A DNA stretch of 64,000 nucleotides from Steroidobacteraceae bacterium. GTDB taxonomy: Bacteria; Pseudomonadota; Gammaproteobacteria; Steroidobacterales; Steroidobacteraceae. The stretch covers positions 5,805 to 69,804 of the forward strand of contig DATMRC010000112.1 in assembly GCA_035567075.1 (NCBI GenBank). Reading direction: 5' to 3'. Position 1 is the stretch's first letter; the number at the start of each line of letters is the position of its first letter. The translations under genes were made by a program, and so were the position numbers. Under the pieces are notes generated by a model. It was not told where the DNA came from and searched no databases. It worked only from the letters and a program-made list of their open reading frames with translations. Positions 47,701 through 52,820 of this stretch are shown piece by piece.

Positions 47701-48072
47701 TCACACCTGTCCCAGGCTGATGCAAACCACGCCCACCGTGACCAGGATGATGCCCGCCCACTGCAGCGTTGAGAGCGTCTCGCCGTAGATCAACCAGGCA
47801 GACAGCGCCATCAGAATATAAAACCCCGCGCCGATGCTGGCGGTGGCAACACCGAGCTTTTCGCGCGAGACCACCAGCATCCACAACACATAGCCGAGAA
47901 CCTGCAGGGTAACCGAGGCGTAGATCCACGGGGACAGTGCCGCATTGCCAATGAAGCGCGGCAACTCCGACAGACCAGACGGGCTGCCAAGCTGGTTCAG
48001 CGCACGCCGCAACAGCAACTGACTGATAACCGCATTGACGGTCACAGCGAGGAACAGGAGTTTCAGCGGCAT
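47701..48072 (-). CDS. Small 4-TM SMR/EamA-type protein, ArnE/ArnF-like candidate polyprenyl-phosphate-sugar flippase
   Basis: 123 aa with four hydrophobic segments. The C-terminal YGETLSTLQWAGIILVTVGV is typical of EamA/SMR-like ArnE/F proteins. Last gene of the minus-strand operon, 3 nt after the preceding stop. Confidence 0.65.
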   Translation of the reverse strand: MPLKLLFLAVTVNAVISQLLLRRALNQLGSPSGLSELPRFIGNAALSPWIYASVTLQVLGYVLWMLVVSREKLGVATASIGAGFYILMALSAWLIYGETLSTLQWAGIILVTVGVVCISLGQV

Positions 48073-48075
48073 GTG

Positions 48076-49504: not shown

Positions 49505-51576
49505 GGTCCTTCTTTCGCTTCCAGCAGGTGCACAAAATAGTGGCCGTTACGCCGGCCGCAGGCAAGCGGTGGAGCTGACTTAGCCCACGCGCTCTCGCGT
49601 CCGATGTAAACCAGCGGCTCGGCGGCAATCGAATTGTGAAACTTGACCCAGCCGTGGCTGACCCATGCCGTCAAATCGGTGTTCATGTAAAGACGCCGCC
49701 AGCCGTCGCCGTAGGGCTCGGACGGCGGACGGCGCGGCTGGAAGAGTTGCGGACAGGCGTCTTCCAGTTGGTCGAGCACGAGATCGGCGGCTTGCTGGCT
49801 GGCCACCCGCAGGGACCGGTCGGTGTCGTCAGGAACAAGGTGGCAGCTCACAAGATAGGTCGTGTCGCGAGATTGCGGCACGACTGGTTCTGATCGCATG
49901 AGTGTGGCCTCCAAGGGCGGAGGCAGACCGTACACGGTTATCGTCGCGCAGTCGCTCGCCTCGACGCGCAGCCCAAAACGCTGTAGGGCCGCATCGACGT
50001 TTGAACGCAGCGGTTCACGCCGTTCGACGTCCTCGTACAGGCGCGCGCCGGTCACCAGAACTCGCACATGGGGCGAGTATCGGTTGATCAGCGCCGCGAT
50101 GCGCGACCCATTCGCGCCGCCCGGGCCAAGCGCATAGCCTCCTGAGAAGTTGATCAAGCCTGATCCCCTCGGGAGAAATGCAGCCATGAAGGAGTGCGAC
50201 TGTGCGCCCATGGTCAGGTACAGATTGGACGCTGTCGACAGCTTTTCGGGTACCGCAATCCGGAACCACTGACCGTCCCATGGCACAGGATTCCAGCGAT
50301 AATCTGTGCCCATCCATAACTGGATTGCTTGGACACCGAAAATGGCCGCCAGCACGTAGTTGCGTACCTTCGGTCGACCGGCGAACACTCGAAACAGCAG
50401 CGCGACGATCACGACGGCAGCGACACTGGCCATGGGCAGGAAGTAGCGGCTGTTGCCCGAACCGCTCAGCCATAGCACCCAGTCCACGCCGAGTCCACAG
50501 CCAAGCGCCCACAGCACGCGCGTTGACAAATCGGGTTTTGCACGCCGCGAAGGAATTGAGCCACTTGCGAGGCGTCGCCACAGCCAGCGAAACAAAAGCC
50601 AGACCATCAGCAGTACGAGCACCGCATAGCGCAGATCCGGCGCGCGTAATTCCGCATGCACCATGGTTATCGGATCGGCCATGGCGAACGGGCGCCACAG
50701 AGCTTCGGCAAAGGTCCCCGGAATGAAGCGGAAGTGACGCAGCGGCTCGGTTGTGAATTCCGGCGAGCGGAACAGACCATTCATGAGCGGAAACAGCGGA
50801 TTGCCGAACATCCGCTCGAGGCGATACGACCATGGAGCCGCAACGATCGCAAACCCGACTCCAAGTGCAATCACGTAACCGAGCCCTCGCCGGATTCGCT
50901 CCTGCAGCGTAAGCGGCAGCATGATCACGAGCGAAATGCCGGCCAATGCATGGACGGCGTTTGTTAGCTTTAGCGCGGTTGCGACGCCGAGCAGAAGTGC
51001 GGCGCCCACGATGCGCGCGGCGCGGGGCGTTCGGACAGCACCGGCAAGCAGGAGCCATCCGGCAAGCACCAGTTCCGCCGTCGTTATATCGGCAAAGGTG
51101 TTGCCGATCTGCTGCATCAAGATCGGGTTGATAAACGCCAGGCCAATGGCCCAAACACCCATCGTCATCCGCATGTGAGGGTCGTTCGACGGACACACGC
51201 AGACGGCGAGTTCGAAAGTCAGCCAGAGAATGATGCTATGTGCAATCGCCAGCACCGAGGCAATCGCTAGCGCCGGCAGTCCGGCGCTGACCATCGCGTA
51301 GAAAGGCACGTAGGCAAAGGGATTGAAGTAGGACGGCGGCCCGGCCGCAAAATAATCGTGGACGAAACGGTCGTTAACCGCGCTGAACCCGGAGTACAGA
51401 TGGTAGTTCAACAGGTCCCACGACATGTCCTTGCCCAGCAGGTAGTTGCTGACGAGTGCGAGCACGGTGCACGCGATGTAGACCAGCGGCCGATTGGCCA
51501 CGGCGGGGACGCTGACGCCGACGCGCGGCGTACTCAGCGGCAGCGTGTGCTGCGCCGCGCTCCCGGGCGGACTCAT
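49501..51576 (-). CDS. 691-aa polytopic membrane protein with a ~250-aa C-terminal soluble domain; candidate GT-C-fold glycosyltransferase
   Basis: More than 10 hydrophobic segments in the first ~420 aa. The first loop is acidic/aromatic (LGKDMSWDLLNYHLYSGF), as in GT-C enzymes. ATGA-coupled on both sides, to a GT2 polyprenyl-phosphate-sugar-synthase-like gene and to a methyltransferase. The CDS is solid; the function is inferred. Confidence 0.6.
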   Translation of the reverse strand: MSPPGSAAQHTLPLSTPRVGVSVPAVANRPLVYIACTVLALVSNYLLGKDMSWDLLNYHLYSGFSAVNDRFVHDYFAAGPPSYFNPFAYVPFYAMVSAGLPALAIASVLAIAHSIILWLTFELAVCVCPSNDPHMRMTMGVWAIGLAFINPILMQQIGNTFADITTAELVLAGWLLLAGAVRTPRAARIVGAALLLGVATALKLTNAVHALAGISLVIMLPLTLQERIRRGLGYVIALGVGFAIVAAPWSYRLERMFGNPLFPLMNGLFRSPEFTTEPLRHFRFIPGTFAEALWRPFAMADPITMVHAELRAPDLRYAVLVLLMVWLLFRWLWRRLASGSIPSRRAKPDLSTRVLWALGCGLGVDWVLWLSGSGNSRYFLPMASVAAVVIVALLFRVFAGRPKVRNYVLAAIFGVQAIQLWMGTDYRWNPVPWDGQWFRIAVPEKLSTASNLYLTMGAQSHSFMAAFLPRGSGLINFSGGYALGPGGANGSRIAALINRYSPHVRVLVTGARLYEDVERREPLRSNVDAALQRFGLRVEASDCATITVYGLPPPLEATLMRSEPVVPQSRDTTYLVSCHLVPDDTDRSLRVASQQAADLVLDQLEDACPQLFQPRRPPSEPYGDGWRRLYMNTDLTAWVSHGWVKFHNSIAAEPLVYIGRESAWAKSAPPLACGRRNGHYFVHLLEAKEGP

Positions 51577-52820
51577 GAATCGCCCGCGCTGGTCGCGCGG
51601 ACATCGATAAATCCAAGCAGGAACGACGCGAAAATGATTTCTGCGCCCGCAAGCATCAAGGTCACAGAAGGGATCGCCACGCGCATCATGGTCGCCGGGT
51701 CGAGCGCCGCCAGACGCGCATGCGCCCAGCTCTCGACCGAGTAAGCCGCGAGACCCAAACCGGCAAGGCCGAGCGATAGGCCGAGTAGAATCCCGCGCTC
51801 GAGGCTAAAGATGCGCAGAAATCGCGCCAGGGGAGGGGACATCGGCAAGAGATTCTTCAGTACGCCGATGGTGCGCGCTAATAAAGAGAACAGCACCAGC
51901 TGTACTCCCAGAATGGTTACGCCGGCGGCATACAGCATGGTGTGGATGTCGAATCCGACACCGCCGATGACGACCGGACCATGCAGGATCACGAGTTCAG
52001 CCGCGGCACCGATCCCGATCAGGCACGCGCCTGGATACAGCATCAACCAGCGGGGGCTCATCATCAGCAAAAAGCGCAGGTGACGCCACCCATCCTGCCA
52101 GCTGCGCAGATGCGGCGGCCGCGTGCGGCCGTCCGGCGACAGAACGGTGGGCACCTCGGCAATACGCCAACGGGCGAGGGTCGCCTTGACTATCATCTCA
52201 CTTGCGAACTCCATACCCGGGGCACGCAGCCCCAATTGCAGCGCCGCCGCGCGATCGAAGCCGCGTAGACCGCAATGAAAGTCACCTATCCTGGAGGAGA
52301 AGAACAGGCGCCCGACGAAACTCAACACTGGATTGCCAATGTAACGATGCATCAGCGGCATGGCGCCCGGCCTGATGCCACCACGAAAACGATGGCCGAT
52401 GACCATCGTGTTGCCGGCCCGCAATGCATCGACAAACGGATCGAGCTGCGAAAAATCATAGCTGTCGTCGGCATCGGCCATGATCACGAATCGCCCACGG
52501 GCAGCGTCAATTCCGCCGATCAGCGCGCTGCCATAGCCTTTGCGCGCAATGCGCACCACGCGGGCACCCGCCGCGTCGGCAAGTTCAGGCGACCCGTCGG
52601 TCGACCCATTATCGGCGACCAGCACCTCACCCTCGATGCCGGTTCGCTCAAGAAAGCCGCGCGCCTTGCGTACGCATGTCGCGACAGTCTCCGCCTCGTT
52701 GAGGCAGGGCATGAGAATGGTCAGTTCCAGGGAGGCGCGACTCGCTGGTCTGGCTGCCATCAAGTCGCTCGGCCTGATCATGATAGCGACCGATTCTAAA
52801 CCTCGACACACAAAGCACAA
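51573..52820 (-). CDS. GT2 glycosyltransferase with a C-terminal TM bundle (ArnC/GtrB/Dpm1-like polyprenyl-phosphate sugar synthase)
   Basis: LTILMPCLNEAE, ADNGSTDGS and the DxD motif MADADDSY, followed by about four TM segments in the last 150 aa. N-terminus uncertain (ATG 52820 or the MIRPSD start). Confidence 0.8.
   Translation of the reverse strand: MCFVCRGLESVAIMIRPSDLMAARPASRASLELTILMPCLNEAETVATCVRKARGFLERTGIEGEVLVADNGSTDGSPELADAAGARVVRIARKGYGSALIGGIDAARGRFVIMADADDSYDFSQLDPFVDALRAGNTMVIGHRFRGGIRPGAMPLMHRYIGNPVLSFVGRLFFSSRIGDFHCGLRGFDRAAALQLGLRAPGMEFASEMIVKATLARWRIAEVPTVLSPDGRTRPPHLRSWQDGWRHLRFLLMMSPRWLMLYPGACLIGIGAAAELVILHGPVVIGGVGFDIHTMLYAAGVTILGVQLVLFSLLARTIGVLKNLLPMSPPLARFLRIFSLERGILLGLSLGLAGLGLAAYSVESWAHARLAALDPATMMRVAIPSVTLMLAGAEIIFASFLLGFIDVRATSAGDS

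Follow-up and report, generated by a model that had tools for sequence, protein, structure and literature searches.

The stretch of DNA analysed here, called the window below, comprises 64,000 nucleotides from the metagenome-assembled genome of a soil Steroidobacteraceae bacterium (Gammaproteobacteria; assembly GCA_035567075.1, contig DATMRC010000112.1, positions 5,805 to 69,804 of the forward strand). Within a type IV pilus locus it carries a module of five co-directional minus-strand genes (47701–52820). In the order of transcription these encode a family 2 glycosyltransferase (GT2), a 691-aa polytopic protein with the fold of GT-C glycosyltransferases, two methyltransferases (MT1 and MT2) and a small membrane protein, an order written below as GT2>GT-C>MT1>MT2>EamA. 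A first-pass annotation, made from the sequence alone, had described the same row of genes, and all five open reading frames (ORFs) were located where it placed them:

51573–52781, minus strand: GT2tm, 402 aa from the likely ATG at 52781, with an N-terminal GT2 domain, a DADD motif and four C-terminal transmembrane (TM) segments
49501–51576, minus strand: 691-aa GT-C-fold glycosyltransferase, with a TM domain at about residues 29–422 and a periplasmic-type C-terminal domain at residues 425–691
48752–49504, minus strand: MT1, 250 aa, soluble class I S-adenosylmethionine (SAM) methyltransferase, Methyltransf_23 match at 1.5e-10
48076–48720, minus strand: MT2, 214 aa, soluble class I SAM methyltransferase, Methyltransf_23 match at 1.8e-7 and Methyltransf_12 match at 2e-6
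47701–48072, minus strand: EamA4, 123 aa, four TM segments, EamA/SMR-like, candidate flippase for a lipid-linked sugar

The ATGA stop/start overlaps reported earlier between GT2tm and the GT-C gene, and between the GT-C gene and MT1, were both read directly from the minus strand, and the reported gaps were also recovered, with 31 nt from MT1 to MT2 and 3 nt from MT2 to the EamA4 gene. The longest GT2tm ORF spans 51573–52820 and begins with a TTG at 52820. The longest MT2 ORF reaches 48780; the start retained here is an ATG behind a GGGGAG Shine-Dalgarno sequence.

We compared the module with 71 loci from species-representative genomes and with loci from metagenome contigs, giving 74 non-redundant loci, each retrieved with about 10 kb of sequence and annotated by phmmer searches of six-frame ORFs with the window proteins. 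The full order GT2>GT-C>MT1>MT2>EamA was found in six other loci (L015, L024, L026, L046, L051 and L053) and partial versions of it in L004, L027, L028, L057 and L059. The cassette usually continues into two genes of opposite orientation, encoding a soluble GT2 (GT2b) and a TylF-family methyltransferase (<GT2b <TylF). Because the gene order recurs in six other loci and the 4-nt start/stop overlap is kept at 17 of the 23 GT2>GT-C junctions in other loci, the module is not a chance arrangement. Its constant core is the GT2>GT-C pair, with the GT2 detected in 49 of the 74 related loci. The first-pass annotation had considered two methyltransferases in such a module to be unusual; both are indeed soluble class I SAM enzymes, but they belong to a recurrent EamA-linked cassette and are not a one-off.

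Predicted functions of the five proteins

The GT2 had been described as carrying a C-terminal TM bundle, and hydropathy indeed shows four C-terminal TM segments in GT2tm, which also contains the motif VIMADADDSYDF. The profile check proposed for it gave a Glycos_transf_2 (PF00535) match at 5e-24. The top NCBIfam matches are to AglJ (2e-35), PpgS (6e-22) and a haloarchaeal dolichyl-phosphate (Dol-P) hexose transferase (3e-19), all under the equivalog cutoffs. In a sequence search of the PDB, the closest solved relatives are the dolichol-phosphate mannose synthase (DPMS) of Pyrococcus furiosus (2.6e-9), ArnC (2e-8) and GtrB (8e-5), and all three load a sugar onto polyprenyl phosphate. The four C-terminal TM helices resemble those of archaeal DPMS, as against two in the published GtrB structure. 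Homologs of GT2tm bear the Pfam GT2_TM_C domain. By homology, GT2tm is predicted to be a GT2-family polyprenyl-phosphate sugar synthase.

The 691-aa protein was modelled with AlphaFold2 on 31 homologs (pLDDT 70, pTM 0.70). The top 33 Foldseek matches of this model in the PDB are all GT-C enzymes, each with a probability of 1.0; they include Pmt4, STT3, ALG9, ArnT, DPY19, EmbA/B/C, AftA/B and ALG3/12, with Pmt4 as the best (3.6e-5). A different fold had been named at first pass as the outcome that would speak against the proposed pathway, and the model came out as GT-C. The fold search alone succeeded here, since a sequence search of the PDB with profiles of the GT-C family gave no match. The protein has no Pfam match of its own, and the GT87 and PMT_2 models remained unmatched even at E<=1. 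Weak GT87 (PF09594) matches do appear in 9 of 31 close relatives (best 1.6e-6) and in 9 of 36 distant relatives (best 3e-8), while 6 of these 36 match PMT_2 instead. Close relatives are nearly all annotated as 'hypothetical', and some JGI records of relatives are named 'Glycosyltransferase family 87'. An exhaustive profile search put the size of the family at 3,807 clusters (50% identity) for E<=1e-3 and at 1,004 for E<=1e-30; the 150 best clusters are mostly full-length, at about 620–700 aa, with some 20 fragments. On these profile matches we place the protein as founder of a large uncharacterised family lying between GT87 and PMT_2 in the GT-C clan, without a clear place in either.

Residues D54, D74, K203, R283, E309, D314 and R377-Y378 are invariant in the family down to 26% identity, D54 and D74 lying in the acidic first extracytoplasmic loop. 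The C-terminal domain contains four invariant cysteines, which argue for a periplasmic, disulfide-bonded domain. It is predicted as a mixed alpha/beta fold, with a pLDDT of 75 when modelled alone. Since the domain alone gave no fold match in the PDB (best E 0.36, TM-score <0.2), both a known carbohydrate-binding module and a tetratricopeptide repeat (TPR) domain were ruled out. Many pilus loci carry two to four tandem GT-C paralogs beside a single GT2 (L036, L039, L045, L032, L033, L040, L062, L063 and others), which suggests several acceptor sites or the stepwise building of a glycan in the periplasm. The idea that GT-C proteins from methyltransferase-bearing loci form a separate clade was rejected, as they are scattered in a neighbour-joining tree. 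As a separate observation, a phage-like contig from IMG/VR (L081) with capsid-like and tail-fibre-like ORFs encodes, at 7364–8911, a truncated GT-C relative of 515 aa with 29% identity over residues 48–378 and without the C-terminal domain; an adjacent GT2 was not detected. This arrangement is reminiscent of phage-borne Gtr serotype-conversion genes.

Hydropathy gives no convincing TM segment in either methyltransferase (none in MT2, one marginal in MT1). The SAM motif I of MT2 (LLDIGGGDGE) is canonical. That of MT1 (VLDLGAMDETA) is unusual, and it is invariant across 12 orthologs. NCBIfam and PDB searches gave no informative characterised relative for either protein, nor a close solved relative for MT1. 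Among the related loci, 15 of the 16 with an EamA-like gene carry a methyltransferase and the 16th (L001) has a methyltransferase fragment. GT-C>EamA>MT is also the order in two distant loci, L076 and L078, although the L076 methyltransferase has no detectable similarity to MT1 or MT2. This near-constant pairing suggests that the donor is methylated before flipping; being soluble, the methyltransferases must do their work ahead of export. The most economical mechanism would be methylation of a lipid-linked or nucleotide-linked sugar in the cytoplasm, after which a flippase matched to the modified donor would export it. There is a precedent in Haloferax volcanii, where AglP methylates and Agl7 sulfates sugars carried on dolichol phosphate, both on the cytoplasmic side and prior to translocation, for which sulfation may even be required (PMC3871713).

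The last gene had been read as a four-TM SMR/EamA protein. Hydropathy of EamA4 does show four TM segments, and the profile matches are EamA/SMR-like, below cutoffs: 1.2e-5 and 26 bits against the Pfam EamA half-domain (cutoff 28.2 bits), and weak NCBIfam matches to ArnE (2e-4), MdtJ (4e-4) and ArnF (9e-3). EamA4 is homologous to the EamA protein that adjoins the distant GT-C in L076. Its Lys and Arg residues are distributed three per membrane face (K4, R70 and K72 versus R22, R23 and R39), a charge bias of zero. This, together with the presence of a single gene, is compatible with an EmrE-like dual-topology homodimer more than with an ArnE/ArnF-type heterodimer. In the 74 related loci, a GtrA-like protein occurs in 31 and an EamA-like protein in 16; only 3 loci have the two together, and 30 have neither of them. 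A search of the window with a hidden Markov model built from the GtrA-like proteins of related loci found no GtrA-like ORF, and the window thus has the EamA type alone. The replacement of one small membrane protein by another, unrelated one beside the same GT2/GT-C pair is the pattern that a flippase-type accessory predicts, and it supports a three-component reading. The make, flip and transfer logic proposed at first pass agrees with all of these assignments, namely the relatives of the GT2, the GT-C fold, the EamA/SMR-like four-TM protein and the soluble class I methyltransferases.

Pilus genes in related loci

Type IV pilus genes lie within about 10 kb in 62 of the 74 loci; pilA, pilB, pilC or pilD is found in 55 and a pilin in 52. 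The 12 loci without a pilus gene are mostly contig-end truncations. By our own estimate, which is not a computed control, a random gene would be found this near a pilus locus in well under 1% of cases (about 0.5%). In the window, the GT-C gene lies upstream of the major pilin gene pilA1, on the same strand and at a distance of 5.4 kb.

Betaproteobacterial loci are simply pilA>GT-C>GT2, with the GT-C gene directly downstream of pilA in L050, L052, L054, L056, L060, L071, L074 and L075. Among the carriers of this arrangement are four cultured Variovorax strains, namely V. boronicumulans NBRC 103145 (L050), V. paradoxus DS1452 (L054), Variovorax sp. CF313 and Variovorax sp. dw_308, together with metagenome-assembled genomes of Massilia and Ramlibacter. 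Distant members of the GT-C family (26–30% identity) are again linked to pilins. In L080 the GT-C stands beside a pilin and a PilB-like ATPase, and in L076 a GT-C of about 27% identity belongs to a compact co-directional row (6012–12642) of pilin>GT2>GT-C>EamA>MT>PglL-type O-oligosaccharyltransferase. Two pilin glycosylation chemistries thus stand side by side in L076.

The first-pass annotation had treated pilin, lipid A and O-antigen as equally possible acceptors on mechanistic grounds. That balance does not hold in the light of the comparative context, which clearly favours the pilus. From synteny, we infer that the ancestral target, and the predominant one, is the pilus, and that pilin or a pilin-borne glycan would be the acceptor.

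The island around the module

The module is part of a glycan-related pilS-to-pilA island of about 18 kb, which separates pilS/pilR from pilA. The neighbouring genes, in order of position, are the following:

38745–42690, minus strand: pilB, pilC and pilD, identified by phmmer matches of window ORFs to L001/L004 orthologs with T2SSE, T2SSF and Peptidase_A24
42923–43444, minus strand: pilA2, second tandem pilin (Pilin 4e-18, N_methyl)
43599–44120, minus strand: pilA1, type IVa major pilin (Pilin, N_methyl)
44450–45250, plus strand: TylF-family sugar O-methyltransferase (TylF 7e-15), part of the recurrent cassette <GT2b <TylF
45408–47648, plus strand: OafA-type AT3-SGNH acyltransferase, an enzyme type that adds O-acetyl groups to glycans (Acyl_transf_3 9e-27, SGNH 1e-31), convergent with the module
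52883–54790, minus strand: cytoplasmic TPR and sulfotransferase protein (Sulfotransfer_3 2e-45 and TPR repeats), between the module and pilR
54904–56241, minus strand: pilR, sigma-54 response regulator (Response_reg, Sigma54_activat, HTH_8)
56335–57123, start approximate, plus strand: GT2b, soluble GT2 glycosyltransferase (PF00535 1e-11)
57175–58824, start approximate, minus strand: flavoenzyme resembling UDP-galactopyranose mutase (UGM) (Amino_oxidase, NAD_binding_8; NCBIfam PRK07208, 'hypothetical', 6e-227)
58793–60676, minus strand: M627, conserved polytopic membrane protein ending in a soluble domain, family not assigned
60706–62418, start approximate, plus strand: M651, polytopic membrane protein (NCBIfam LA_3751/LA_3752 9e-7, below cutoff)
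62390–64000, to the window end, minus strand: pilS, sensor kinase (6TM_PilS, HisKA, HATPase_c)

Several of these neighbours recur with the module. GT2b is present in all nine loci that have both MT1 and MT2. The TPR-sulfotransferase is encoded in 24 of the 74 related loci, where it mostly has the GT-C genes on one side and pilA on the other, and by analogy with Agl7 of Haloferax it might sulfate the donor sugar. The best PDB sequence matches of the flavoenzyme are eukaryote-type UDP-galactopyranose mutases (2e-12), and the enzyme is encoded directly upstream of GT2tm or GT-C in 14 related loci. Its counterpart in L003 (993–2633) has the same Pfam domains, Amino_oxidase and NAD_binding_8. This UGM-like neighbour may point to a furanose as the transferred sugar.

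M627 has 929 homologs, all annotated 'hypothetical'. An invariant aspartate (D37) just after TM1 and a cysteine-containing C-terminal domain give it a GT-C-like layout; searches of M627 returned no Pfam or PDB relative and no profile similarity to the GT-C family. The weak match of M651 is to a putative glycosyltransferase family of Leptospira, and M651 is found in 12 related loci. The two proteins were considered as GT-C paralogs and rejected as such, there being no profile-profile similarity. The sub-cassette M651< M627> UGM> recurs in about 14 loci.

PilA1 and PilA2 each have 165 mature residues, with 31-residue C-terminal disulfide loops rich in Thr, Ala and Pro; their Ser/Thr content of about 24% is not diagnostic without a control set. 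A sigma-54-like site (TGGCATAGCGCTTGC, 44190–44204) with one mismatch to the consensus precedes pilA1 by about 70 nt, and this gene is followed by a strong terminator-like hairpin (43541–43564). The sigma-54 pattern is not enriched overall (83 matches against 89 expected), and a near-consensus site is found at pilA1 only. Scans for sigma-70 promoters and terminators were uninformative. The island genes (44000–62400) have lower GC content and lower GC content at third codon positions (GC3; 0.62–0.73) than the dcw cell-division cluster at 10000–29000 (0.72–0.83), and a GC3 dip is seen across pilA-GT-C-GT2 in Variovorax loci. These values are consistent with horizontally exchanged DNA encoding variable surface antigens.

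Proposed pathway, alternatives and known systems

Taken together, the five genes probably form the core of a periplasmic, lipid-carrier-dependent glycosylation pathway of the pilin locus, a reading that draws on homology, predicted structure and conserved gene order. Judging from its relatives, the DPMS-like GT2 would load polyprenyl (undecaprenyl) phosphate, on the cytoplasmic side of the membrane, with a single sugar taken from a nucleotide sugar. MT1 and MT2 would then O-methylate this sugar while it is still in the cytoplasm, most likely on the lipid-linked donor. Three neighbours, the TylF-type methyltransferase, the sulfotransferase and the UGM-like flavoenzyme, may contribute further modifications to the donor or to the nucleotide precursor from which it is made. 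The EamA/SMR-like four-TM protein, probably as a dimer, would bring the tailored lipid-linked sugar to the periplasmic face. There the GT-C, through the acidic D54/D74 of its first periplasmic loop, would attach the sugar to the major type IV pilin, which the novel disulfide-bonded C-terminal domain of the enzyme would recognise as acceptor; the choice of pilin as acceptor follows from conserved synteny only. Beyond fold and homology, then, we infer a GT2-dependent GT-C pathway of the pilin locus with donor-tailoring methyltransferases.

Several observations speak against this pathway or limit it. The confidence of the GT-C model is moderate (pLDDT 70), and its TM-scores to known GT-C enzymes are 0.3–0.54. 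The EamA and Arn-type matches of EamA4 fall below curated cutoffs. A third component is not obligatory, because 30 loci have no small flippase-like gene within reach; in minimal loci the small component is dispensable or supplied in trans. The related loci were retrieved through two peptide motifs, so that mainly one branch of the GT-C family was sampled. A sigma-54-type promoter was looked for ahead of the module and was not found, and co-regulation with pilA is thus unsupported. To these are added the loci in which the full methyltransferase-bearing cassette stands away from pilus genes (L015, L026 and L051), and four loci with a PglL-type O-oligosaccharyltransferase nearby (L069, L072, L073 and L076), both of which bear on the alternatives below.

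The nearby PglL in these four loci would fit decoration of a pilin-borne glycan, and not of pilin itself. In such a Gtr-style scheme, which we regard as rather unlikely, pilin would be glycosylated en bloc by a PglL/TfpO-type enzyme encoded elsewhere, or by M627/M651, and the GT-C would add a (methylated) side-branch sugar. The PglL homolog of L076 (PglL_A, Wzy_C) directly follows GT-C>EamA>MT, and those of L069, L072 and L073 are near the GT-C gene; the tandem GT-C paralogs, with the stepwise glycan building that they suggest, and the further glycan-tailoring genes of the island (AT3-SGNH, GT2b and M651) would also suit it, and Kelly et al. (PMC11127046) state that every Gtr system characterised has a glycan as its target. 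However, a PglL-like ORF is absent from the window and from every Steroidobacteraceae locus examined: a jackhmmer search seeded with the L076 PglL found nothing in the window, and Wzy_C had no match in any island protein. Moreover, minimal loci of the Variovorax type consist of pilA, GT-C and GT2 only, and M627 and M651 have no demonstrable transferase homology. An acceptor in lipopolysaccharide (LPS; O-antigen, core or lipid A) or exopolysaccharide, with the pilus locus merely a hot spot for surface-glycan islands, seems improbable to us. It could account for L015, L026 and L051, where the complete seven-gene cassette GT2>GT-C>MT1>MT2>EamA> <GT2b <TylF has no type IV pilus gene within 10 kb. 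This cassette neighbours alaS in L015 and L051, and L015 also shows recX and recA; upstream of it in L015 and L026 is a gene for a small YeaQ/GlsB-like membrane protein, and L015 has a tRNA-like stretch. The cassette looks like a mobile module. In the neighbour-joining tree, however, the GT-C proteins of the three loci form one subclade nested among pilus-linked ones, so that their position looks like a secondary relocation. The adjoining acyltransferase is of a type generally known to acetylate O-antigen, and GC and GC3 below those of the flanks are typical of mobile surface-antigen islands. Yet 62 of 74 loci, from two classes of Proteobacteria, are linked to pilus genes, and the linkage persists at a GT-C identity of about 26%; the island showed neither LPS nor Wzx/Wzy genes, and the betaproteobacterial GT-C immediately follows pilA, as tfpW does (bioRxiv 10.1101/2020.04.19.049825).

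A further possibility concerns the accessory proteins. The methyltransferases may act elsewhere, on a nucleotide-sugar precursor, a small molecule or a protein, with MT1 perhaps a non-catalytic partner, and EamA may export something else; we consider this unlikely. The VLDLGAMDE of MT1 in place of a GxGxG motif would agree with it, as would the lack of an informative characterised relative for either methyltransferase; EamA/SMR proteins are generally known as mostly small-molecule transporters, and the Pfam score of EamA4 is below the gathering cutoff. On the other hand, the methyltransferase genes are tightly embedded between the GT-C and EamA genes, with a spacing of 0–31 nt, and this order is kept in at least nine loci. 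EamA-MT pairing beside GT-C genes is near-universal, even with a different methyltransferase subfamily (L076 and L078), and the invariance of the MT1 motif speaks for selection on function.

If the pilin-locus pathway operates as proposed, it might represent a third, widespread and mechanistically separate route of type IV pilin O-glycosylation, next to en-bloc transfer by PglL/TfpO and arabinosylation by TfpW. It would resemble protein O-mannosyltransferase (PMT) systems, with single sugars loaded onto undecaprenyl phosphate by a DPMS-type GT2, tailored on the lipid carrier (methylated, perhaps sulfated), exported by an EamA flippase dedicated to the methylated donor and transferred directly to pilin by a new GT-C family with an acceptor-recognition domain of its own. 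We advance this wider claim tentatively. It would give a function to a family of about 3,800 clusters, almost all labelled 'hypothetical'. With a DPMS and GT-C pathway dedicated to pilin in soil Gamma- and Betaproteobacteria, protein O-glycosylation of the PMT kind would reach into the Gram-negatives, and there would be a natural case of a lipid-linked monosaccharide donor undergoing methylation ahead of export. The exchange between GtrA-type and EamA-type components would provide a genetic handle on the role of these small proteins. As cultured Variovorax strains carry the minimal version, the prediction is directly testable. Published work shows that pilin glycosylation shapes phage susceptibility and immune recognition; it presumably also affects the surface properties of type IV pili.

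A literature search returned no paper describing the present GT-C family at pilin loci, and PglL/TfpO and TfpW were the only types of pilin glycosyltransferase that appeared. TfpW, known from Pseudomonas aeruginosa group IV (Pa5196/PA7), resembles the present system in being a GT-C-fold membrane enzyme of about 650–690 aa encoded at the pilin gene, in using a polyprenyl-phosphate monosaccharide donor made in the cytoplasm, and in the small membrane protein, GtrA-like or ArnE/F-like, to which a part in handling the donor is ascribed (bioRxiv 10.1101/2020.04.19.049825). The TfpW donor is D-arabinofuranose made from phosphoribosyl pyrophosphate (PRPP) via decaprenylphosphoryl-phosphoribose (DPPR) synthase and DprE1/DprE2 (bioRxiv 10.1101/2020.04.19.049825), whereas here the donor would come from a GT2; the TfpW system is also without methyltransferases. 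Furthermore, TfpW has DDX in periplasmic loop 1, YX6PFX7P in loop 4 and a C-terminal TPR domain, and the 691-aa protein has none of these: pattern searches found no DD in residues 1–130 and neither Y.{6}PF.{7}P nor Y.{6}P.{5}P, and a TPR Pfam match was absent. Membership of the TfpW group was rejected on these motif and domain tests, and the published motif descriptions set the 691-aa protein apart from TfpW.

Gtr systems (GtrA/GtrB/Gtr*) and GT136 pentofuranose systems follow the same logic of synthase, flippase (small or MATE) and GT-C (PMC11127046). GtrB is among the solved relatives of GT2tm, and a GtrA-like protein replaces the EamA-like one in 31 related loci. In Gtr the acceptor is O-antigen, whereas the context here points to pilin. 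The small protein of the window is of the EamA/SMR type and not of the GtrA type, the GT-C belongs to another family with a novel C-terminal domain, and the methyltransferases are embedded in the operon. As the GtrA family (PF04138) is not represented in the window, the module was not assigned to Gtr.

The ArnC/ArnE-F/ArnT-like description given at first pass stands as a functional analogy. The same three roles are present, ArnC is the second-best solved relative of GT2tm, ArnT is among the fold matches and ArnE and ArnF are weak matches of EamA4. It does not stand as membership, which was rejected because the scores against the Arn equivalogs all fall far short of their cutoffs (ArnC 25.4 bits against 529, ArnE 21.4 against 92, ArnF 16.5 against 99). 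One small gene takes the place of the ArnE/ArnF pair, and the setting is a pilus locus and not lipid A modification. The 691-aa protein has no PMT/ArnT Pfam match, and arnA, arnB and arnD domains are absent among the island genes at 44.4–62.4 kb.

PMT O-mannosylation of actinobacteria and eukaryotes (Ppm1/DPMS and PMT, GT39) likewise combines a DPMS-type GT2 with a GT-C and adds single sugars from a polyprenyl-phosphate donor to Ser/Thr of secreted proteins. The best fold match of the 691-aa protein is Pmt4, and some of its relatives weakly match PMT_2 or GT87, the family of mycobacterial PimE. In contrast to PMT, the 691-aa protein lacks a MIR domain, has another C-terminal domain, and is found in a Gram-negative proteobacterial host at a pilin-specific locus. 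The Agl system of Haloferax volcanii is archaeal and transfers an N-linked oligosaccharide through AglB (STT3-type), and its methyltransferases and sulfotransferase are compared with those of the window by function. Nevertheless, AglJ is the best NCBIfam match of GT2tm, and with AglP and Agl7 the system offers the closest precedent for methyltransferases and a sulfotransferase that act on a lipid-linked donor (PMC3871713).

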